From an uncultured Thiotrichaceae bacterium (lineage in GTDB: Bacteria; Pseudomonadota; Gammaproteobacteria; SZUA-229), in NCBI GenBank assembly GCA_964421315.1, contig CAYQXD010000003.1, forward strand, positions 1-44,776: 44,776 nt of DNA, in the 5' to 3' direction. This document shows positions 2,956-38,523 of this stretch, piece by piece (position 1 is the first letter of the stretch; each line of letters starts with the position of its first letter). The notes under the pieces are model-generated. The model worked only from the letters and a program-made list of their open reading frames with translations, did no database searches and was not told the DNA's origin. The position numbers and the translations under genes are program-made.

Positions 2956-4273
2956 CTAAACCATATCAAACAGTTCGAAGTGGATGTGACCCTGCTGCAC
3001 TCGCAGGGCATGAAGTCCCTGTTGCACGGCATCACTCATGGGTTTAGGACCACACAGGAAATACTCATACTCTCTTGTTTCATCCGGTAGAACTTTTTTC
3101 AACAACTGCGGGGTGATAAAACCCGACTCACCTTGCCAGCCGCCTGGTGGTTGTTTTAATACATGTATCAACTGCAGGTTCAGGCGTTGCTTCAGCGACT
3201 CCAGCTCTTCTCTGAAAATCACATCATCCCAGCAGTCGCTGCCATAAAGAAACCACAGTGGGCGATGTTCATGTCGATCCGCCAGAGTATGCAACATGCT
3301 TATAATAGGTGCAGCACCTATACCACCGGCGATGAACACAAAACCCGGCGCGTGCAGGTGCCGGTCTACACTGAAAACGCCGTGAGGACCATCCAGGTAG
3401 GCGATTTCACCAGGCTGAGTATTCTTAATGGTGCGGGTGAAGTCTCCCAGTTCCTTGATGGTAAACGTCAGTTGATCCTGGCGTGCGGCACTGGAAGAAA
3501 AGGAGAAAGGGTGCTCCTTGATGCGCCAGGGGGATTCGCGCAAGGTCAGCCAGGCAAACTGACCGGGTTTAAAGCATGCCTTCATGACCATCCGGCTCCA
3601 GTGCCAGGGTCCAGCTGTTGCCACGCTCCTGCCTGACCTCACTCACTCGATAAGGTCTACCGGACATATGCCAGGGTTTGATCAGTCGCAGGTAGACAAT
3701 CAGCAACAGCCAGAACAGCGTGTATCCTGTCCACAACCAACGTTTGGCGGGCGCATCAATGTAATAACCCACGCCTTCAATATGCCCCAGCGCCAGCAGG
3801 AAGGCTGTCACTGCCAAACCAATATGCAGCATGCGCCATTCATCATAATGAATACGCAGTTTTTTACGCCACAGTGAAGTGAAAATAAGCAGCGCGAATA
3901 GCAGTAGCGCGATACGACCGGCAGTCATGTACCACGGCGCCTGTAAGGGATTGATGTCCCCCAGTGCATCGGCATTGTCGATACGTATGATAGCAAAATG
4001 CAAAAAAATGAAAGTGAACGCCATCACCGCCAGATAACGGTGAAAATAGTAAATGATGTCAACACCAAAAGGTGCACTGGCACGGCGAAAACGGGCAGTG
4101 ATAAAAAACTGTACACCTACCATGGCCATGCCGGCAAAACCCAGCGCCATGGAGAAGTCCCACCAGAAACCGGAACCGGGAGGCACTTCACCCATCTGCA
4201 ATATTGCCAGCGGTGCCAGTACCAGTATCAGGTAGACGCTAATCCAGAAAAAAGTCGATAACAGTATTTTCAT
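2956..4273 (-). pseudogene. Ferric-reductase-like transmembrane domain + FAD/NAD(P)-binding (FNR-like) oxidoreductase, split by a 1-nt frameshift near 3570-3580
   Basis: ORF 3569-4273 encodes a multi-helix His-containing membrane domain and the start of the FAD barrel (RPYRVSEVRQERGNSWTLALEPDGHEGM). ORF 2956-3642 continues from FKPGQFAWLTL with HPFSFSS and FIAGGIGAAPIISML motifs. The two frames overlap at ggcatgctttaaaccc. Confidence 0.7.
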
Positions 4274-4390
4274 GCGTTAACCCGAAAATTTCATAACAGT
4301 GAATATTGTGTCCATGTCATTAAGTTAACAATGCTTAAACTGCCTTGTCATCTCCAGCCTTTGGTTCATTAACGGTACGTCCCTGTACCA

Positions 4391-4457
4391 CTACTCGACC
4401 GTAGGGAGGAATCTTATTGTATGAGAATCAAGATCTCTCACATTCGTTCGAGATGAC
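4391..4457. repeat. Degenerate copy (A) of the ~69-bp TCTCGACC...GGGAGAGATCT palindromic element
   Basis: ctactcgaccgtagggaggaatct / loop / agatctctcacattcgttcgagatgac. The outer and inner arm segments match copy B at 25501-25569. The middle of the right arm has diverged. Confidence 0.6.
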
Positions 4458-4460
4458 AGT

Positions 4461-4544: not shown

Positions 4545-5552
4545 TTATTCACCCTCATATGCCCCCTTTCTTGCCAGACTATTTAATCTAGCGCGAGTCA
4601 ACAGAGCCTGTTGCGTTTTTACATCATTTTCTGCTTTGCCCTGCCAGGCAAACAGGGCGGGTTGTTGTAAGGCGCGTCCATAGGAAATACTGAGCTGCCA
4701 TGGCGCATTCTCGCCCAGCCGGTTGATGGCATTGAGGTTGCGCGTGGCTTCTTCCGGGCCTTGTCCACCAGAGAGAAAGTTAATACTGGGCACGGCTGCA
4801 GGTACCGTTCGGCGGAGAATTTTGAGTGTTTCGCTGGCCACTTCTTCCGGGGCTGCGGTGCGTAAGTCACTACCGGGTACAATCATATTGGGCTTGAGTA
4901 TCATGTGTTCCAGGCTAACATGATGCTGGTGCAAGGCATGAAAAACGGAGTGCAACACATTTTCGGTGACTTCTGCACAACGACTTATATCGTGACGACC
5001 ATCCATCAATACTTCCGGCTCAACAATAGGAACAATGCCTGCAGCCTGACAGACGGCGGCATAACGTGCCAGCATTTCTGCATTGGCATGAAGCCCTAAA
5101 GCGGTAGGATTTGTATCGCTGATAGCATACACCTCACGCCATTTTGCAAAGCGTGCACCTTGTGCCTTGTATGTTTCAAGTCTTTCTGCCAGACCATCCA
5201 GACCGTAGGTAATGGAATCACCCGGTGCACCGGGTAACGACCCTTTGCCTTTATCAACTTTGATACCCGGAACAATGCCCTGTTGCCAGGCCAATTCTGC
5301 TAACGGCATGCCATCACTGGATTTTTGAGCCAATGTTTCTTCAAACAGTATGACACCTGATATGTATTGCCCAAGATCAGCTGTACTCAATAATAGACTT
5401 CTATAAAATCGACGATTTTCCTCTGTGGACTCGACATTGATCGCTGCAAGACGCTTTGCAATAGTTGGCGAGCTTTCATCCATTGCCAGAATACCGCGTG
5501 TTTTATCAACCATATCATTAATAGTTTGTTGTAGTTCAGTTGTCGTACTCAT
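4545..5552 (-). CDS. fba: Class I fructose-bisphosphate aldolase
   Basis: 335 aa. GILAMDESSPTIAKRL, RFYRSLLLST, FEETL, GIKVDKG and LKPNMI are typical of class I (Schiff-base) aldolases. Confidence 0.9.
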   Translation of the reverse strand: MSTTTELQQTINDMVDKTRGILAMDESSPTIAKRLAAINVESTEENRRFYRSLLLSTADLGQYISGVILFEETLAQKSSDGMPLAELAWQQGIVPGIKVDKGKGSLPGAPGDSITYGLDGLAERLETYKAQGARFAKWREVYAISDTNPTALGLHANAEMLARYAAVCQAAGIVPIVEPEVLMDGRHDISRCAEVTENVLHSVFHALHQHHVSLEHMILKPNMIVPGSDLRTAAPEEVASETLKILRRTVPAAVPSINFLSGGQGPEEATRNLNAINRLGENAPWQLSISYGRALQQPALFAWQGKAENDVKTQQALLTRARLNSLARKGAYEGE

Positions 5553-6773: not shown

Positions 6774-7304
6774 TTACTGCCTCGCCACTTCTCGACGCAG
6801 ACGCAACTTCTGCTCTGGCGTAACCCGCGCAAAGACAGCAGTACTGGTGGCAGCTATAATCAATTCAGCATCAGACATGACTTCCAGTTCTCTACCCTGC
6901 AATACCTGCGGCAGAGTACCGTCATTTGAGTCTTGACTAAGGTCATCATCGAGACCAATCTGACTGGCAATAGCGGCAGCGGTAATAGCGTGATCGCCGG
7001 TAATCATTTTGACTCTAATACCCGCGGTCTGGCAGGCACGAACTGCCTGTATCGCTTCTTCACGAGGAGGATCGATCATTGCCTGCGGTCCATTTGCCCA
7101 GTTAAAATATTTGGAGCCATTATTAGTGGTCAGGGTATAACTGCCCGGCTGCTGCTGATCATTAATGCCCTGCGGCAATTGTTCAACCGAGGTGATTTCA
7201 TCATAAATAATGCTTTCATGACGAACTTGCGGAGCAATACAGGTATAACCTTTAGCCTGTAAATTATCCAGCAAATGTTGTAACTGATCTGTTTGAAAAA
7301 ACAC
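6774..7304 (-). pseudogene. Chimeric relic ORF: N-terminal ~75 aa of an AsrA/HydB-like Fe-S oxidoreductase fused in-frame to an internal P-domain fragment of a second P-type ATPase
   Basis: Residues 76-170 ([38 protein letters not shown]...VFARVTPEQKLRL) parallel residues of the intact ATPase at 9996-12752 ([38 protein letters not shown]...). The fragment lacks the DKTGT and GDGVNDAPAL motifs. The N-terminal part (GYTCIAPQVRHESIIYDEITSVEQLPQG) is unrelated. Confidence 0.7.
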
Positions 7305-7607: not shown

Positions 7608-8110
7608 ATGAAATACTATCAAATTTTCCATACACCAGAAGAACTCGGTAAACTTGCTCGTGCAGGGAGAAAATCACAAAAACCAGGGTTGCGTACCGCT
7701 GCCCCGCGAGCCAACGTGGGCCCCGATTTCTATCTGAATTTGAACGAGGCAAGCCGACAGCAGAGTTTGCCAAGGTTATCTCTGCTGTGCATGCTGCTGG
7801 TTTAGATCTTGTACTTGCCGACCGAGTTCGCTCTCGGGATTTATACGACCTCTATGTGTTGATGCGCGGCTATGGCTACTCTCTGGATACGTTGTTTTCC
7901 ATGGTCAAAGAAATTGGCACCGTAGATGACCCCGAACACTACAAAGCCATCATGCGCGGCGAGATCCCTCTAGATGATGACAACGAAGGACTTGAAGCTG
8001 TTGAGCTAGATACTAATTATGAGAAAATCATTAAATATTTCAAGCATAAGATCGATGAGTACGAGACAGGCTTAGCGCGTGATCATTTTCTTGGGAAGCC
8101 AGAACTCTGA
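7608..8110 (+). pseudogene. Decayed TA/abortive-infection remnant: frameshifted XRE/HipB-like HTH fused to the C-terminal ~95 aa of an AbiEii-like (DUF1814) nucleotidyltransferase
   Basis: Frame 1 reads MKYYQIFHTPEELGKLARAGRKSQK..ANVGP. After the GGCCCC run (~7718-7727) the next frame reads RFLSEFERGKPTAEFAKVISAVHAAGLDLVL, typical of an XRE antitoxin C-terminus. It continues without a stop into SRDLYDLYVLM..., an AbiEii-like C-terminus. Confidence 0.45.
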
Positions 8111-9887: not shown

Positions 9888-10054
9888 CCAGGAGGCTGTC
9901 CGAGAATAGAGAGCCTACTGCAAATCCCATAAAGGTCATAATCTGAGCTTATTGAAATCGTTAAATAGCACAACTATTCGCCTCATTCAATAAACTCACC
10001 TTATAACCTTTCTGTGATTTTCGCTACGACTTCTATTCTCGGACAGCCTCCTGG
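9888..10054. repeat. 167-bp element bounded by a perfect 23-bp inverted repeat (ccaggaggctgtccgagaataga)
   Basis: The left arm is 9888-9910 and the right arm 10032-10054, an exact reverse complement. The right arm and about 36 nt of the interior encode the last ~22 residues and the stop of the P-type ATPase. Confidence 0.85.
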
Positions 10055-12752
10055 TTTCCCGGCTTCGCCGGAACCTTTTTTCCGCACCGATGACCAGATA
10101 GATGACCAGACCAACCGCCAGGATATACACCCAGTCCATAAAGCCGATAGGTGCTGTATGGAACAGTTTATTCATCAACGGCAGGTAGGTGAAGGCCAGT
10201 TGCGCCGCAGTCATGGCGGCGATGCCTACCCAGATCCAGGGATTGCTGAACAAGCCAAGCTGAAATATGGAAAATCGCAACGATCGGCAGTTCAGCAGGT
10301 AGAATGACTGTCCCACCGCAAACACATTGACCGCGATGGTGCGGGCTTCAGCTTCACTGGCACCCTGTAGCAGCGCCCACCTGAACAGACCGAAGCTACC
10401 GATCAGTAATAACAAGCCGACCAGTACAATGCGAAAAATCATTTCGCCACTGAGAATGGCGGTATCCGGTCTGCGTGGCAAACGACGCATAATACCTGGT
10501 TCACGCGGTTCAAAGGCTAAAGCAAGACCAAGTAACACGGCGGTGGTCATATTGATCCACAATGCCTGCACAGGCAGCACCGGCAATGGTTGCGCTGCCA
10601 TCACTGCGGCGATAATCACCAGCCCCTGACCGGCATTGGTGGGCAAAATCCAGGTGAGAAATTTGATCAGGTTGTCGAATACACCGCGACCTTCTTCCAC
10701 CGCTGCCTCAATGGTGGCGAAATTGTCATCGGTCAGCACCATGTCGGCTGCTTCTTTTGATACTTCGGTGCCGGTAATGCCCATGGCCACGCCAATATCT
10801 GCGCGGCGCAAAGCTGGCGCATCGTTAACCCCGTCACCGGTCATGGCAACCACTTCACCGTGGGCTTGCAGGGCTTCAACCAGACGCAGTTTTTGCTCGG
10901 GCGTTACCCGTGCAAAAACGGCAGTGCCAGTGGCAGCCTTGATCAGCTCGGCATCGGACATGACTTCCAGTTCACGACCACTCAGTACCTGCGGAATTTC
11001 GCCATCACTCAGGGTAACATCGAGACCAATCTTGCCGGCGATGGCAGCAGCGGTAATGGCGTGATCACCGGTAATCATTTTGACCCGAATACCGGCAGCC
11101 TGGCAGGCGCGTACCGCCTGTATCGCCTCTCCCCGTGGTGGGTCAATCATGCCCTGCAAACCAATAAAAACCAGCCCCTGATCAACATTCTCATGGTCAA
11201 TGCTGGTAGTATCCGCTGACACTGGCAGACGTGCGAAAGCCAGTACTCGCTGCCCCTTGCTGGCCATTGCATCTACCCTGGCATGCACGACATCTTTATC
11301 CAGTAGCTTGCTGCTTCCATCGGTTCCCATAATGGTATCGCAACGTTCCAGCATGCTCTCCACTGAACCTTTCAGGCAAACCACCGGGCGGTCGCCACCA
11401 TGAAGAGTCGCCATATACTGGTGTTGAGACTCAAAAGGGATGGTATCCAGCCGTGGGTAAAGATTCTGTTCCTGCTTACCATCAAGCTCAGCTTTGCTCG
11501 CCGCCACCAGCAACGCCCCTTCAGTAGGATCACCCTCGACCTTCCAACCTTCTTCACCCTGTTTAAGGACAGATTCATTACACAGCAGACCGGTGCGCAG
11601 CAGTTCGACCAGTGCTGTGTGCTTGCTGACATCCACTTTTTTACCGCTTTGCTGAATTTCACCGTGTGGTGTATAACCAATACCGCTAACTGCAAATTCT
11701 TCATCTCCCGCCCACAACTGCTGTACTGTCATCTGGTTACGGGTCAGGGTACCGGTTTTGTCCGAACAGATAACGGTGGTGCTGCCGAGAGTTTCCACCG
11801 TCGGCAGGCGACGAATGATAGCGTTGCGTTTTGCCATACGCGCCACACCGATGGCCAGAGTAATGGTCAACACTGCAGGTAAGCCTTCTGGAATCATCGC
11901 CACCGACAGGGCTACCGCAGCCATGAACAGATCAATCCAGCTATCGCCATGGTATAAACCGACCAGGAAAGTAATCGCCGCCAACCCTAAAATGGCGTAC
12001 AGCAACAAATGAGAAAAGCGCGCAATCTTGCGGGTTAGTGGTGTCGCCAGCACCTCGGCACTGGCGATAAGCTCGGAGATGAGTCCAATCTCGGTCGCAT
12101 CACCGGTTTCAGTGACCACGCCCACAGCGGTACCATAGGTCACCAGCGTGGACGAATAAGCCATATTCGTTCGCTCAGCCAGGATAATATTATGTTGCAG
12201 TACAGCCGATTGTTTTTCCACCGGCAGCGACTCTCCGGTCAGTGCAGATTCATCAATCTGTAAACTCCGGCTATGCAGCAGGCGCAGGTCAGCCGGCACC
12301 TTGTCGCCCGAGGTGAGCAACACGATATCGCCCGGCACCAGTTCTTTGGCATCGATGCGCTGCTTCTCACCAGCACGTAATACTGTGGTCTCGGTAGTCA
12401 GCGCACGAGACAGGGCTTCCAACGCACTCAAGGCCTTGCCTTCCTGCACAAAACCAATAATCGAATTGAGCAGCACCACACCAAAGATAACACCAGCATC
12501 CACCCAGGCACCAAGGAACAGCTTAATAACAACCGCTACCAGCAGGATGTATACCAGCGCCTGGTTGAACTGCAACAGAAATCGCAGCAGCGGACCCTGC
12601 CCTTTACGCTGAGTCAGTGCATTGGCACCAAAGTTTTGCTGACGGTTCTCTACCTCAAACCGATCCAGCCCTTTATCCTGATCGCTATCAAGCAGATCCA
12701 GTACTTCTTCCTGGGGCAGGTGATGCCAGTGTTTTTCCAGCAAGGTTTTCAT
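9996..12752 (-). CDS. P-type cation-transporting ATPase (type IIA, Ca2+/Mg2+-like)
   Basis: 918 aa with TGES, CSDKTGTLT, MITGDH, TGDGVNDAPAL and 10 predicted TM segments. Confidence 0.9.
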   Translation of the reverse strand: MKTLLEKHWHHLPQEEVLDLLDSDQDKGLDRFEVENRQQNFGANALTQRKGQGPLLRFLLQFNQALVYILLVAVVIKLFLGAWVDAGVIFGVVLLNSIIGFVQEGKALSALEALSRALTTETTVLRAGEKQRIDAKELVPGDIVLLTSGDKVPADLRLLHSRSLQIDESALTGESLPVEKQSAVLQHNIILAERTNMAYSSTLVTYGTAVGVVTETGDATEIGLISELIASAEVLATPLTRKIARFSHLLLYAILGLAAITFLVGLYHGDSWIDLFMAAVALSVAMIPEGLPAVLTITLAIGVARMAKRNAIIRRLPTVETLGSTTVICSDKTGTLTRNQMTVQQLWAGDEEFAVSGIGYTPHGEIQQSGKKVDVSKHTALVELLRTGLLCNESVLKQGEEGWKVEGDPTEGALLVAASKAELDGKQEQNLYPRLDTIPFESQHQYMATLHGGDRPVVCLKGSVESMLERCDTIMGTDGSSKLLDKDVVHARVDAMASKGQRVLAFARLPVSADTTSIDHENVDQGLVFIGLQGMIDPPRGEAIQAVRACQAAGIRVKMITGDHAITAAAIAGKIGLDVTLSDGEIPQVLSGRELEVMSDAELIKAATGTAVFARVTPEQKLRLVEALQAHGEVVAMTGDGVNDAPALRRADIGVAMGITGTEVSKEAADMVLTDDNFATIEAAVEEGRGVFDNLIKFLTWILPTNAGQGLVIIAAVMAAQPLPVLPVQALWINMTTAVLLGLALAFEPREPGIMRRLPRRPDTAILSGEMIFRIVLVGLLLLIGSFGLFRWALLQGASEAEARTIAVNVFAVGQSFYLLNCRSLRFSIFQLGLFSNPWIWVGIAAMTAAQLAFTYLPLMNKLFHTAPIGFMDWVYILAVGLVIYLVIGAEKRFRRSRETRRLSENRSRSENHRKVIR

Positions 12753-24078: not shown

Positions 24079-26517
24079 TCATCTATTAAACCCATATTCC
24101 ATAACCTGGCCGAAACTAATACCCGCATCATTAACTGGTATCAACTCAGGCAGACAAACATCAAAACCTTCGTCCTCCAATAAAACCATGGCTCGCTCTG
24201 TTAATACCCGGTTCTGAAACACGCCACCGGAAAAACTCACTGTATTCACCCCGTGTTTGTCACGAATAATTTTTGCCTGCTGCAACAGCGTGTGCGCCAA
24301 CGATTGATGAAACAAAGAAGCACGCTTGCTAAGGCTTAATGTAGAATCTAACATAACAGCAATTAATGGCTGCCAGTTGCTTATCAATATATTCTCATTC
24401 TCTGCTAACTCCAGTTCTATATAGTCACTGGATTTTTCGCACAATGCTTCAAGTTCCATCGGACCCTGCCCCTCAAAACTAGCCATCTTGCGGATACCGG
24501 TTAAGGCAGCAGCAGCATCAAACAGACGACCAACCGAAGTGGTTTGTGGTGCATTAATTTTTCGTAACCATGCCTGCCGTAATACTGAATGCAACAGTGG
24601 GTCTTTTTCGGGAATATCGTCATAGTTCTGCCCCACTTCCCAGCATAATGCTGCAGCGCTTCGCCAGGGTTGTCGTCCGGCTTTATCACCACCGGGCAGA
24701 TTAAAACTTCGCATACTGGCCACGCGTAACCATTCACCCGGTTTACCAAGAAACGTTTCGCCACCCCACAGCATGCCATCTTCACCGTAACCAACACCAT
24801 CCCAGGTGAATACTATAATCGCATCGTCAGCCTTTATAACTTGCTGGCATTCGTAATAAGCGGCAGAAGCATGAGCATGGTGGTGAAACACCGTTTGCAC
24901 AGGAAGGTTCTGTTTGTTTGCCCAACGTGTGGTTGTATAACCAGGGTGTGAATCGCAAATTAAACGTTTTGCTTTAACACCATAAAGTTTTTGTAAATCA
25001 TTAATGGTATTTTCAAAAACGTCGACACTGCGAGCCGTGTCCATTTCGCCTATATGCGGTGAAATAATGGCGCGGTTTTTCCATGCCAGGGTGATGGTGT
25101 TTTTCATCTGTGCACCGACGGCAAGAACAGCATGTGGCAATTCAAACGGTAAAGTCAGTTCTATTGGCGCACAGCCACGACCGGTACGAATGGGTCGTGG
25201 TTTACCGGCAATGGTTCGATACACTGGATCATCCGCCGGTCGCTGTATCGCTCGGTTATGATGCAAACAGGCATCAGCCACATGAGCCAGTCGTTTTTCA
25301 ACATCACTGTTTTTTATTAAAACCGGCTCGCCACTTATGTTTGCCGAAGTAACCACCAGTGGCCTGGCAAAATCATTTAACAGCAGATGATGCAACGGAC
25401 TATATGGCAACATCATACCCACTTCATCTAATCCCGGTGCAATCTGATCGGATAAAACAGAATGAGAATTTTGCATAACCGAGGAAACATTCAATACACT
25501 GTCATCTCGACCAGCGGGAGAGATCTTGTTCCGCCGTTGCTTAAGATCTCTCCCGCTGGTCGAGATAACAATATCTGAAAATTCACTTTGTTCAGAGTCT
25601 TTATTTTTAGCCACCTGTAAAATGGGCCTGGCAGCTTGTAACAAAAATATTTTATCATTTTCACTTAATGTTAGTGATTTTTCTGCAAGCTCAAATGGAT
25701 TATTAAGCGGTGCCGGGAACATAATCGCCAGCGGTTTATCAGGTCGAGGTTTTTTCTTCCGTAAACAGACAACCGCTTCTGTATTTGTTGCATCACACAT
25801 CAGGTGATAACCACCGATTCCTTTTACCGCAACGACTTTGCCATCACGCAACAGGTTTACCGTCTTTTTCAGCGCTGCTTTATTTTCCTTGATTACGATC
25901 TCGTCCATATGAAAAACAAGTGAAGGCCCACACACTGGACAGGCAACAGGCTCAGCGTGAAAACGCCGATTAAACGGATCTTCATATTCAACTAAACAGG
26001 TCGGACATAATTCAAAATCGGCCATAGTGGTATTGGCACGATCATAAGGCAGGCTTTTAATCAAAGTGTAACGCGGCCCGCACTGAGTGCAGTTGATAAA
26101 CGGGTATTGATAACGCCGGTCTGATGGGTCGTTTAATTCTGCAAGACAGTCATCACAGAGGGTAAGGTCGTTTGGAACACTAATGTTAGCCTGTTCCTGA
26201 TGTTCGCTGTCAAGAATACAAAAAGTTTTTAACTCACCAGCGGCAGTTTGTTTATCTGATTCGAGTTTGGGTTTTGCTAATGGTGGTTTTTTATCGAACA
26301 GGTCTAAAACAAAGCTATCAAGATTTTGAGACTGACCCTGAACAAAAATTTCGACAGTACCGACACAGTTTTTTACCCAGCCAGTAAGTTTATTCTCGAT
26401 GGCAAGCCGATAAACAAAAGGCCGAAAACCAACACCCTGCACCTGTCCGGATAATACAATCTGCCTGGCAGAGGTTTCAGGTTTTGTTTTCTGTTTACTA
26501 TTTAAATAAATAGCCAT
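24079..26517 (-). CDS. hypF: [NiFe] hydrogenase maturation carbamoyltransferase HypF, carrying an in-frame palindromic-element insertion
   Basis: 812 aa with an acylphosphatase domain (VQGVGFRPFVYRLA), two zinc-finger pairs (CDDC..CTQCGPRY, CPTC..CPVCGP), a YrdC-like domain and a Kae1-like domain. Confidence 0.95.
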   Translation of the reverse strand: MAIYLNSKQKTKPETSARQIVLSGQVQGVGFRPFVYRLAIENKLTGWVKNCVGTVEIFVQGQSQNLDSFVLDLFDKKPPLAKPKLESDKQTAAGELKTFCILDSEHQEQANISVPNDLTLCDDCLAELNDPSDRRYQYPFINCTQCGPRYTLIKSLPYDRANTTMADFELCPTCLVEYEDPFNRRFHAEPVACPVCGPSLVFHMDEIVIKENKAALKKTVNLLRDGKVVAVKGIGGYHLMCDATNTEAVVCLRKKKPRPDKPLAIMFPAPLNNPFELAEKSLTLSENDKIFLLQAARPILQVAKNKDSEQSEFSDIVISTSGRDLKQRRNKISPAGRDDSVLNVSSVMQNSHSVLSDQIAPGLDEVGMMLPYSPLHHLLLNDFARPLVVTSANISGEPVLIKNSDVEKRLAHVADACLHHNRAIQRPADDPVYRTIAGKPRPIRTGRGCAPIELTLPFELPHAVLAVGAQMKNTITLAWKNRAIISPHIGEMDTARSVDVFENTINDLQKLYGVKAKRLICDSHPGYTTTRWANKQNLPVQTVFHHHAHASAAYYECQQVIKADDAIIVFTWDGVGYGEDGMLWGGETFLGKPGEWLRVASMRSFNLPGGDKAGRQPWRSAAALCWEVGQNYDDIPEKDPLLHSVLRQAWLRKINAPQTTSVGRLFDAAAALTGIRKMASFEGQGPMELEALCEKSSDYIELELAENENILISNWQPLIAVMLDSTLSLSKRASLFHQSLAHTLLQQAKIIRDKHGVNTVSFSGGVFQNRVLTERAMVLLEDEGFDVCLPELIPVNDAGISFGQVMEYGFNR
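25501..25569. mobile_element. Perfect copy (B) of the ~69-bp palindromic element, inserted in-frame in hypF (MITE-like)
   Basis: atctcgaccagcgggagagatct (25504-25526) is the exact reverse complement of 25544-25566, with a 17-nt loop. It translates as ISTSGRDLKQRRNKISPAGRD within HypF. Confidence 0.8.
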
Positions 26518-28567: not shown

Positions 28568-28675
28568 AATGAAAAATGAAAAGTGAAAAATGAAAAATTT
28601 AAAAACTAAAACCGAATATCTGGTACAGGCAGTTTTGCTTATCCATTTTTCACTTTTCACTTTTCATTTTTCATT
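28568..28675. repeat. Palindromic element with 31-nt arms built from TGAAAA(A/G) reiterations, between hypA and hypB
   Basis: aatgaaaaatgaaaagtgaaaaatgaaaaat (28568-28598) pairs with 28645-28675 with one mismatch. The right arm contains the last codons (MKNEK) and the TGA stop of hypA. Confidence 0.85.
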
Positions 28676-29019: not shown

Positions 29020-29062
29020 AAGGGCACCTCTTAAAACCATCTTTTTGTCCGATTTCGGCGTT

Positions 29063-29175
29063 GGATGGATTTCTGCGATCCGGGGCCGTGTAACGGTAAA
29101 TTACATATACACTGCGGCTCCATCCTTTGGTTCGTAAACGGCACATCCATATGCCACTACGCTCGAAATCCATCC
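29063..29175. repeat. 113-bp segment bounded by an 11-bp inverted repeat (ggatggatttc / gaaatccatcc) in the hypC-hypA gap
   Basis: The arms at 29063-29073 and 29165-29175 were read directly. The interior holds further short self-complementary runs. Confidence 0.55.
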
Positions 29176-29229
29176 ACCTTGAACTCGAACAAAAATCTTG
29201 GTTTTTAGAGATACCCATAATTAAAGCGA

Positions 29230-36752: not shown

Positions 36753-38324
36753 ATGAAATTTAATATCTCAAAAATGATGCATCCGGCAGTTTATGATCAT
36801 CCGGTTACAAACATACAACTCATCGAAACCCACATTTCCTGGGTAATTCTAACCGGTGACTTTGCCTATAAAATTAAAAAGCCGGTGGACTTTGGTTTTT
36901 TGAATTTTTCTACATTAGAAAAAAGACACTACTTTTGTCAGCAGGAATTAGATCTCAATCGCAAACTGGCACCAGAAATTTATCTTGATGTTGTTGCTAT
37001 CAGCGGCACATTGAATGAGCCTCGACTCTCTGGCAGCAGCACAGTTTTTGAATACGCAGTAAAAATGAAACAGTTCCCGCAATCTGCTCAGCTGGATAAC
37101 ATGCTGGCTGCCGCTGAACTTAAATTAGAACATATGGATGCCATTGCGCATATGACTGCTTATTTTCATCAGTCCACCGATATTGCTAATGAGGCTATGG
37201 ATTATGGCAATAAGGAAACACTTTATCAGCCGGTCGAAGAAAACTTTAAACAGATAAATGAACACCTGGTATCAGAGCTACACACAGATAAACAATATGC
37301 AGATAAACTGACAGTACTTTCACAGTGGAGCAGATCTGAATTAGCTAAACAACAAGCCGTGTTTGCACAACGCAAAGCGGATGGCTTTATTCGTCAATGT
37401 CACGGTGACATGCATTTACGAAATCTGGTCTGGCTGGACAACAAACCAGTGGCATTCGACTGCATCGAATTCAATGACAAATTAAGCTGGATTGATGTAA
37501 TAAGTGAAATCGCATTTTTAATTATGGATTTGCAGCACCGTCAACAACATCAACTGGCCAATCGTTTTTTAAACTGCTACCTTGAGGTCACTGGTGATTA
37601 TGCCGGGTTATCGGTTCTACCCTTCTATCTTTGTTATCGTGCACTGGTTCGCGCCAAAGTAAATGCCTTGCGCGTAGAACAAAAAAACATTACTGACAAA
37701 GAAAAACAACAAACCGATACTGAATTTATGGCTGAATTTGAGTCATACCTTGAACTGGCAAGCAGTTATATAAAACATTCCACTCCAAAATTAATTATTA
37801 CGCGTGGCCTATCTGCCTCAGGAAAAAGTACCGTCTCACAACAGTTAGTTGATACAACAGGAATGCTACGTATTCGTTCAGATGTTGAGCGTAAACGATT
37901 ATTTGAACTTTCCTTAACCACAGGTGCTGCAAACAATATTGATTCTGGAATCTATTCAACACAGGCATCATTGCAAACTTATAAAAAACTAGCTGAGCTT
38001 GCATCTAACATAATCAACGCTGGTTATAGCGTTATCGTTGATGCGGCTTTTTTAAACTATGAGCAACGTCAGCTATTTCAACAACTCGCCAGTCGTTTAG
38101 GTGTTTCTTATATCATCCTGGAAATAACAGCACCTGCTGAGATATTACGACAGCGTATTAAAAAAAGAATACATGATGTTTCAGATGCAGACTTAACAGT
38201 GCTTGAACATCAACTTACACACTGGCAGGATTTGCAAAAAGATGAAGTTAATTCAGCAGTTTCTGTCAATACTACTGGCGTGCTGGATATTAACAAGTTA
38301 ATCAATACGATTAACACAAGATAG
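36753..38324 (+). CDS. Bifunctional aminoglycoside-phosphotransferase-like kinase / P-loop (AAA_33-like) kinase fusion protein
   Basis: The N-terminal APH/choline-kinase-like domain has CHGDMHLRNLVW and FDCIEFND. The C-terminal domain has the Walker A motif GLSASGKST. Confidence 0.75.
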   Translation: MKFNISKMMHPAVYDHPVTNIQLIETHISWVILTGDFAYKIKKPVDFGFLNFSTLEKRHYFCQQELDLNRKLAPEIYLDVVAISGTLNEPRLSGSSTVFEYAVKMKQFPQSAQLDNMLAAAELKLEHMDAIAHMTAYFHQSTDIANEAMDYGNKETLYQPVEENFKQINEHLVSELHTDKQYADKLTVLSQWSRSELAKQQAVFAQRKADGFIRQCHGDMHLRNLVWLDNKPVAFDCIEFNDKLSWIDVISEIAFLIMDLQHRQQHQLANRFLNCYLEVTGDYAGLSVLPFYLCYRALVRAKVNALRVEQKNITDKEKQQTDTEFMAEFESYLELASSYIKHSTPKLIITRGLSASGKSTVSQQLVDTTGMLRIRSDVERKRLFELSLTTGAANNIDSGIYSTQASLQTYKKLAELASNIINAGYSVIVDAAFLNYEQRQLFQQLASRLGVSYIILEITAPAEILRQRIKKRIHDVSDADLTVLEHQLTHWQDLQKDEVNSAVSVNTTGVLDINKLINTINTR

Positions 38325-38360
38325 GAGCTTTGTACGAGCGAGTAAAAACTTAATACCACG

Positions 38361-38418
38361 GTCATCTCGACCTACGGGAGAAATCTAATACCGCAGTGGT
38401 TCAGGATCTCTCCCGTAG
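38361..38418. repeat. Copy (C) of the ~69-bp palindromic element, with the outer right arm truncated
   Basis: gtcatctcgacctacgggagaaatct / loop / atctctcccgtag. The arm triplet TAC/GTA replaces the AGC/GCT of copy B and preserves pairing. Confidence 0.7.
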
Positions 38419-38523
38419 TTCAGTAGGCTGGGGTGAGGTACGTGCCCCAACAGGACACCATAGTGACTTTGTTGGGGCTCATAAAAACATTCACCCCAAC
38501 CTTGTATCAATATTTGGTTTGTA

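Follow-up and report, generated by a model that had tools for sequence, protein, structure and literature searches.

The described repeats closest to those analyzed here belong to two systems. The first comprises the CGTC-tagged REPs, which, in the part of Di Nocera et al. 2013 (PMC3733652) drawn on here, begin with a tag often changed to TGTC, and also to CCTC, followed by a stem of 8-9 bp with complementary A·T at the first two positions, a 4-5-nt loop, and a short tail that is unpaired and mostly CCA. They occur mainly as head-to-head (HH) dimers, both homo- and heterodimers, whose spacers, tens of nt long, show a tendency to conservation, and their in-frame intragenic dimers encode 20-30 aa. 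Neisseria dRS3 and Rickettsia RPE-4 and RPE-6 are members of this super-family, for which that part of the paper reports "no dedicated transposase" and no RAYT flanked by the repeats. The second system comprises the Neisseria NTS and the related SRM, which flank ssn genes (Chenal et al. 2025, PMC11893778, cited here for the part used). SsnA is described there as a site-specific ssDNA nuclease that binds a hairpin and cuts a few nt upstream, with cutting most dependent on the three bases that precede the palindrome and binding most dependent on the C that follows it. The same part of that study reports in vitro hairpin binding and upstream nicking for Neisseria and Wolbachia homologs, and no RNA binding by SsnA. 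Ssn proteins are about 95 aa long, with a single GIY-YIG domain (family cd10448).

The window, i.e. the whole 44.8-kb stretch of DNA that was analyzed, is ordinary gammaproteobacterial chromosomal DNA, with [NiFe]-hydrogenase structural genes, hyp maturation genes, an Mrp-type antiporter, a P-type ATPase, PUFA-synthase-like genes, and several toxin-antitoxin pairs. A sequence-only reading had picked out three palindromic elements in it (copies A, B, and C) and had not recognized them as a named repeat family. As far as the cited parts of the two papers go, these elements fit both the REPs tagged with CGTC/TGTC (PMC3733652) and the NTS/SRM repeats associated with Ssn nucleases (PMC11893778). 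We put at roughly 0.78 the probability that A, B, and C are head-to-head dimers of a REP-type hairpin that bears a TGTC tag and represents a variant of the NTS/SRM repeats, with a predicted cognate Ssn elsewhere in the genome. Covariation within the arms, a conserved 5' GTC and 3' C, and inverted arms bracketing ssn homologs in relatives were all seen in this analysis. What looked like an orphan palindrome can now be named and assigned a likely protein partner. Literature searches on GIY-YIG proteins with palindromic repeats or MITEs, and on the arm sequence itself, returned nothing relevant.

Three head-to-head dimers in the window

The three elements and their parts are as follows.

4346-4458, no strand: copy A, an intergenic heterodimer of two arms with tags outward; spacer 4415-4430
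4346-4414, + strand: left arm of copy A, in two pieces, TGTCATCTC (4346-4354), an insert, and GACCGTAGGGAGGAATCT (4397-4414)
4352-4394, - strand: nested 41-43-nt unit in the left arm of copy A, GTAG + hairpin (GGTAC..GTACC) + GTTAATGAACCAAAGG
4431-4458, - strand: right arm of copy A, TGTCATCTCGA-AC-GAAT-GT-GAGAGATCT, with a 4-nt apical loop
25500-25570, no strand: copy B, a near-perfect homodimer; arms 25500-25526 (+) and 25544-25570 (-), spacer 25527-25543
38360-38427, no strand: copy C, intergenic; left arm 38360-38386 (+, tag GGTC), spacer 38387-38403
38404-38427, - strand: degenerate right arm of copy C, missed by the arm model

The palindromes are present where they had been noted (∼4346-4458, 25500-25570, and 38360-38427), and all three are HH dimers with their tags on the outside. 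When the 44.8-kb window was searched with the arm pattern TCTCGACCNNNGGGAGARATCT, allowing three mismatches or fewer, four matches were found versus 0.01 expected by chance. An arm covariance model run on the window identified five arms and no further convincing one: B-left, B-right, A-right, and C-left, with E-values of 1e-7 to 1e-10, and A-left, a weak match (E 0.16). The arms of copy B score 42.8 and 39.1 bits, the right arm of copy A 34.1 bits (match 4429-4460(-), E 2.7e-7), and the left arm of copy C 33.2 bits (E 4.7e-7), while in the left arm of copy A the model detects the 3' part only (4391-4416, 13.7 bits). Copy B has 28-nt arms that are 96% complementary with 15 nt between them, and its ssDNA folding energy is -30 to -32 kcal/mol (z between about -10 and -11).

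Several details of the sequence-only reading were borne out: the arms carry the triplets AGC/GCT in B and TAC/GTA in C, and the central loops measure 17, 19, and 16 nt in the three copies, within the claimed 16-19 nt. Those loops had been called unrelated, but B and C are identical at 11/19 loop positions and have the pattern TTRTAC...TCAA in common with the spacers of relatives in other genomes. The elements do not end where they had been drawn, since conservation reaches outward to TGTCAT...ATGACA. Copy A is more than merely degenerate; its left arm is interrupted by the 41-43-nt insert, the element extends over 4346-4458, and its outer TGTCATCTC and GAGATGACA ends pair across the whole element. 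Copy C had been taken to be truncated at its right end, but there is no clean truncation; the right arm is degenerate, with a 1-nt deletion.

Copies A and C both lie shortly after stop codons, just downstream of genes. Copy A is placed 3' of a class I aldolase gene (4545-5552, -) and 5' of a ferric-reductase-like gene (3569-4273, -), and copy C is 35 nt past the stop of an AAA_33/APH kinase-like gene (36753-38324, +), ahead of a UbiA gene. Copy B lies inside hypF and is described below.

Each arm forms a small covarying hairpin

The sequence-only reading had described a family of three members and had proposed a covariance model and genome scans, which indeed recovered copies in the window and in many other genomes. 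One representative genome per species was scanned with the arm pattern TCTCGACCNNNGGGAGARATC, and at least 118 genome loci carry it, which means that the family is not private to this DNA. Among the matches listed, the arm-bearing taxa are Bacteroidota, Desulfobacterota, Thiotrichales, Chromatiales, Nitrospirota, and Chloroflexota, as well as Riflebacteria, Chlorobi, Thermotogae, a CPR lineage, and others. Almost all listed matches are preceded by TGTCA, and because this upstream sequence is not specified in the search pattern, the matches are true relatives. A fuzzy search of the listed loci yielded 240 arms, including 68 convergent pairs and 104 solo arms.

Each arm, of ∼26 nt, is an imperfect palindrome with the consensus TGTC-ATYTC-GA-NN-nnn-NN-GA-GARAT-CT, or in full scheme YGTC / AT-Y-Y-C · GA · NN · nnn · NN · GA · G-R-R-AT / C-T. 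As ssDNA it folds into a small hairpin in which the outer stem has 5 bp and the inner stem 2 bp, with a tandem G·A/A·G internal loop between them and a free apical loop of 3-4 nt, so that the whole stem runs AT...AT over nine positions, two of which are non-complementary G·A. The loop has 3 nt in most arms, 4 in the right arm of copy A, and more in L094, and the tail is CT. The tag is TGTC in the consensus of alignment A1, CGTC in several arms, and GGTC in copy C, and in the same alignment G4, T5, C6, and C28 are each at least 90% conserved. What had been read as a variable intervening triplet in the arms is the apical loop of this small hairpin.

Among 117 distinct arms from the matches listed, 92.7% of within-arm cells are paired versus 83.9% after shuffling, and 81 cells show double changes versus 28.5±3.9, a value reached by 0/500 shuffles. 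Pair 9-25 is CG in 61 arms and UA in 42, pair 10-24 is UA in 101 and CG in 8, and pair 14-20 is CG in 76, GC in 22, and AU in 4, whereas slid controls are 20-59% paired. At the two central positions, G·A/A·G is found in 111-112/117 of these arms. The covarying unit is the ∼26-nt arm folding on itself, and the DNA hairpin is the conserved feature. The claim that a hairpin is what is selected or recognized is therefore upheld for a DNA hairpin, but not for the long arm-to-arm palindrome, since the covariation lies within arms. This corrects the structure: the selected feature is a small hairpin in each arm. By nearest-neighbor energy, an isolated arm reaches only -3.2 kcal/mol (z -0.3) versus -30 kcal/mol for a whole homodimer, and in such folding models the long hairpin of a perfect homodimer would compete with the small hairpins and could mask them.

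At the gathering score, Rfam gave no match on the elements in the window or in 18 loci, the sole match in this material being an unrelated SAM riboswitch in L005; at lax thresholds it gave only spurious matches to generic, sub-threshold (miRNA-like) hairpins, and a tRNA scan found none. The absence of an Rfam family bears on the idea that the elements act mainly as RNA, i.e. as terminators, mRNA stabilizers, or protein-binding tandem-G·A hairpins, with the Ssn link at the DNA level being secondary. The placement of A and C soon after stop codons, between co-directional genes, would suit such a role, but copy B lies within a coding region, and a T-run is absent. Tandem G·A is a classic RNA motif, but one arm of any dimer is necessarily antisense, in which G·A becomes C·T, and in both arms and dimers (matches listed) G·U-type pairs are no commoner than plain mismatches. 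Many REPs are transcribed, as argued in the part of Di Nocera et al. considered here (PMC3733652), but SsnA does not bind RNA, according to the part of Chenal et al. cited above (PMC11893778). On balance, a role mainly as RNA appears improbable.

Pairing between the two arms is a local feature

The sequence-only reading had inferred compensatory pairing between the left and right arms. This stands for B, C, and a gammaproteobacterial (Thiotrichales-like) subgroup resembling the window, in which 9/10 dimers are triplet-concordant with five kinds of triplet, but it does not stand in general. Among the matches listed, the same triplet is found in both arms of 19/62 distinct dimers versus 6.3±2.2 after shuffling, a control that mixes phyla, so that relatedness alone inflates concordance. 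Assessed by shuffling, stem covariation is thus supported within arms (81 vs 28.5±3.9) and not between arms at the covarying positions. Indeed, at the positions that covary within arms (6/22 and 11/17), between-arm pairing in the 62 listed dimers is at or below the shuffled level. In the same set, heterodimers that combine an ATCTC...GAGAT arm (CTC-type) with an ATTTC...GAAAT arm (TTT-type) are as common as homodimers.

These findings make it unlikely that the selected unit is a single long hairpin formed by left-right arm pairing, in DNA or in RNA, with compensatory double substitutions and a free central loop. The matched triplets of B and C and the very stable fold of B are what such a unit would predict, but triplets are non-complementary in 43/62 listed dimers, between-arm pairing at 6/22 and 11/17 shows no excess, and heterodimers are frequent. 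Solo arms, which have no partner to pair with, are common (104/240 in the matches listed), and single arms often flank Ssn genes. The concordance itself, both the 19/62 overall and the 9/10 in the subgroup, could favor the long hairpin, but kinship alone raises the former in a shuffle across phyla, and local concordance can be explained without selection on pairing, through a templated step that copies one arm from its partner or through the amplification of entire dimers, just as well as through stepwise compensation or long-hairpin selection.

In the ten gammaproteobacterial dimers, spacers stay related while the apical triplets change in concert. We consider it a tentative possibility that in this Thiotrichales-like lineage the whole homodimer is the replicating unit, and that G·A-loop arms constitute a separate SRM class that has co-diversified with its own Ssn clade across more than 10 phyla. 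If true, this would imply either that one perfect ∼28-bp ssDNA hairpin is selected for or that a templated step copies one arm from its partner, and in both cases a REPIN-like replicator whose driving enzyme is a GIY-YIG (Ssn) nuclease and not an HUH transposase.

Arms bracket ssn genes in related genomes

Among the matches listed, six arm-selected loci contain eight GIY-YIG ORFs (about 95 aa), and all eight are bracketed by arms. The encoded proteins share 39-49% identity with the gonococcal SsnA ortholog (E 1e-17 to 1e-29). This comparison was enabled by L120 (NZ_CP119140.1), since two complete 2.17-Mb Neisseria gonorrhoeae chromosomes are filed as plasmids. A tblastn search found a single homolog in the gonococcal chromosome, a 94-aa gene with canonical CGTCATTCCCGCG...GCGGGAATC repeats on both sides; because these canonical NTS repeats flank it on either side, we identify it as ssnA. 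NCBIfam and PDB returned only weak generic GIY-YIG matches for the partner protein.

In a reverse test, 80 Ssn homologs were picked from metagenomes by protein similarity alone, and their surroundings were searched with the arm covariance model R1. An arm lies within 150 nt of 36/80 homologs, on both sides in 23/80, and 23 of the 25 closest homologs carry one. Conversely, 92 of 120 arm matches are within 150 nt of an Ssn gene. The nearest upstream arm is usually forward and the nearest downstream arm reverse, which places the tags outward in an insertion-sequence-like arrangement. Metagenomic Ssn homologs without G·A-type arms have other GTCAT-tagged hairpins.

The search for a co-occurring enzyme, for which the sequence-only reading had named IS200/IS605 TnpA or RAYT, therefore revealed a dedicated protein partner of another kind, a GIY-YIG nuclease. 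That the elements are REPIN-type and are moved by RAYT or IS200/IS605 TnpA, HUH tyrosine transposases that recognize hairpins, is very improbable. The architecture is alike (imperfect palindromes, a 5' tetranucleotide tag, inverted pairs), and a GTAG-tagged unit is nested in copy A, but the tag of the arms themselves is TGTC and not GTAG. The 44.8-kb window has no transposase, RAYT, or Y1 transposase gene; clustering of ORFs revealed no recurrent transposase family adjoining arms in the loci listed (at least 118); and the portion of Di Nocera et al. used here (PMC3733652) likewise has no RAYT flanked by CGTC repeats. The largest ORF "families" next to arms in this clustering were mere translations of the arms themselves. 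An ordinary MITE, i.e. an insertion sequence of the DDE-transposase type reduced by deletion and bounded by terminal inverted repeats and target-site duplications, would share the inverted termini, small size, and dispersal of these elements, but no target duplication flanks A, B, or C, no DDE transposase is associated with arms in the loci listed, each arm is an internally covarying hairpin, and solo arms are common, which leaves this explanation with hardly any probability.

If the elements belong with the Ssn system, as we favor, the cognate Ssn, encoded elsewhere in the genome, would bind a folded arm when the DNA is single-stranded, by analogy with the Neisseria and Wolbachia enzymes. It would then be expected to nick a few nt upstream of the folded arm, as those homologs do in the part of Chenal et al. 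that we cite (PMC11893778). Gene-less dimers may be non-autonomous passengers of the Ssn system, spread by a putative copying step. No ssn or GIY-YIG gene was found in the 44.8-kb window (tblastn E > 0.9), and the cognate Ssn of this genome is thus assumed and is predicted only.

In gammaproteobacteria, several ssn genes have flanking arms that are directly oriented, or have a solo arm together with a dimer, and in view of such flanks we set aside the idea that gene-less dimers are simple loop-deletion derivatives of an arm-gene-arm element. In two Thiotrichales-like relatives (L094, 60-560, and L121, 1430-1910), ssn has a solo arm upstream and a full dimer downstream, and the arms have longer apical loops, e.g. 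ACG-TTTTTT-GT, which are missed by a search for 3-nt loops.

A variant class that the published SRM pattern does not detect

The arms share many features with NTS/SRM. A (C/T)GTC directly 5' of a palindrome that starts with AT, a C directly 3', and an oriented hairpin are common to both, as is a semi-palindrome of 20-50 nt forming an ssDNA hairpin, in keeping with the within-arm covariation of the 117 distinct arms. Both SsnA determinants defined in the part of PMC11893778 drawn on here are kept in alignment A1, GTC and C at 90% or more each. In related genomes only, arms also show the IS-like repeat-gene-repeat bracketing of a ∼95-aa single-domain GIY-YIG gene, and gene-less copies number in the hundreds in both cases. 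The stem of the arms is unlike that of NTS/SRM in its tandem G·A/A·G internal loop, which is invariant, and in its inner stem of 2 bp.

The published SRM pattern, HGTCWYN(0-2)YYVSBRHN(0-5)WNVSBRGN(0-2)RNCYNB, matches 0/240 arms (matches listed) and nothing in the window, while as a positive control it finds nine NTS in the gonococcal locus. It misses the arms because of the G·A internal loop, and since it misses all of them, they represent a variant class rather than the described motif. The arm model aligns every gonococcal NTS in register (GUCAU...AUCU), with scores of only 7-11 bits. In the set of 80 Ssn homologs, the 16 genes next to a pattern-matching SRM are not among the 23 next to a G·A-type arm in a strict arm search (overlap 0/16).

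With the CGTC-tagged REPs, the arms share a TGTC tag, a stem of ∼9 positions starting from AT, a short tail, and HH dimers that are homo- or heterodimers, as well as an in-frame intragenic copy. By the text description in the part of Di Nocera et al. used here, they differ in having a 3-4-nt loop, a CT tail, and a G·A internal loop, versus 4-5-nt loops and a tail that is mostly CCA, and they differ in their enzyme, since a partner (Ssn) is named here whereas that part of PMC3733652 found none. REPINs and their RAYTs (Bertels & Rainey 2011, PMC3116915) are similar in that two inverted REP hairpins make a larger hairpin, and in being non-autonomous replicators tied to one dedicated hairpin-recognizing enzyme that acts on ssDNA. 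Unlike the arms, which are near-identical across phyla, they have a GTAG tag, an HUH tyrosine transposase, and mostly vertical inheritance. Rickettsia palindromic elements (RPE) also insert palindromes in frame into coding genes, adding a short peptide in a tolerant region; compared by description, RPE-1 is longer, and the host range of these elements differs.

Judged from their sequences, the elements in the window would form a G·A-loop variant class within the CGTC/TGTC-tagged REP and SRM-Ssn kind, and they are predicted Ssn sites. Ssn-associated repeats with a tandem G·A internal loop thus make up a large class, spread across phyla, that the published SRM pattern does not see, and censuses built on that pattern consequently undercount Ssn/repeat pairs. 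The class supplies candidate pairs of enzyme and site, with a specificity that would be new among ssDNA tools.

Copy B lies in frame within hypF

24079-26517, - strand: hypF, carbamoyltransferase HypF, 812 aa; host gene of copy B, frame intact
25465-25599, - strand: segment of hypF absent from the closest homolog, 135 nt (45 codons), containing copy B

The hypF reading frame runs through copy B, which encodes about VISTSGRDLKQRRNKISPAGRDD. As assessed by protein alignment, this stretch is missing from thirty HypF homologs. The closest homolog, P0001 from L119, shares 84% protein identity and lacks the 135 nt in a DNA alignment. The extra segment sits in a naturally variable linker between the YrdC-like and Kae1-like domains. 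The insertion junctions are ambiguous because the 135-nt gap exceeds the 71-nt element and because the length of this linker varies naturally; comparison with L119 gave no clean empty site or target duplication. The best explanation is that copy B arrived in, or was kept in, a tolerant hypF linker, in frame. It is one more clean case in which a repeat has added peptide sequence to a protein, here an essential maturation enzyme.

A GTAG-tagged unit and other repeats

The unit nested in the left arm of copy A, the boundaries of which are ambiguous by a 3-nt CTC, is 81% identical to 29118-29160, and a third, shorter unit is found in L059 (about 7740-7790), at the same arm position as in copy A. 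These three sites define a second small repeat, on the - strand in the window, made of GTAG, a short hairpin, and GTTWAYGAACCAAAGG. Its hairpin covaries (GGTAC..GTACC vs GGCATAT..ATGTGCC), and from its sequence the unit looks like a GTAG-tagged REP. TCGAG precedes the unit in all three examples, a hint that the unit may target the other repeat preferentially. At 29058-29178, between hypA and a hydrogenase maturation protease gene, an 11-bp inverted repeat (GGATGGATTTC...GAAATCCATCC) encloses the second GTAG-tagged unit; the inner bases of this inverted repeat, ATTTC-GA-GCG ... CGC-A-GAAAT, are arm-like, without the TGTC tag and with a 77-nt insert in the loop.

Arm-related sequences also occur in arrays. 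In L096, a tandem array of 5' half-arms (GCTGTCATTTCGACCCTCC) with a 19-nt period lies upstream of ssn (1250-1420), and repeats that end in GAGATGACA recur about every 21 nt downstream (1940-2050). Similar half-arm duplications precede arms in L018, L066, L098, L100, L103, and L104. Flavobacterium azizsancarii (L028, 2569-3544) has a variant arm (TGTCCTTTCGACC...) of which six dimers follow one another in tandem, one about every 174 nt, showing that these repeats can form arrays too.

Other repeats were noted in the window. Directly after copy C, at 38432-38500, there is a nested palindrome with outer TGGGGTGA...TCACCCCA and inner GCCCCAACA...TGTTGGGGC pairs, which occurs once in the window and in none of the fetched loci. 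At 9888-10054 lies a 167-nt imperfect palindrome with perfect 23-bp termini (CCAGGAGGCTGTCCGAGAATAGA) and a MITE-like look, the right arm of which overlaps the 3' end of the P-type ATPase gene. The stretches 6798-7086 and 10881-11157 share about 80% DNA identity in direct orientation, and, on sequence grounds, a 176-aa HAD-type ORF (6774-7304) seems to have arisen as a partial duplication of the P-type ATPase gene (9996-12752). Finally, inverted arrays of GAAAAAT/GAAAAGT heptamers at 28568-28675, with 43-nt arms that are 86% complementary, span the hypB-hypA intergenic gap and run about 19 nt into the 3' end of hypA.
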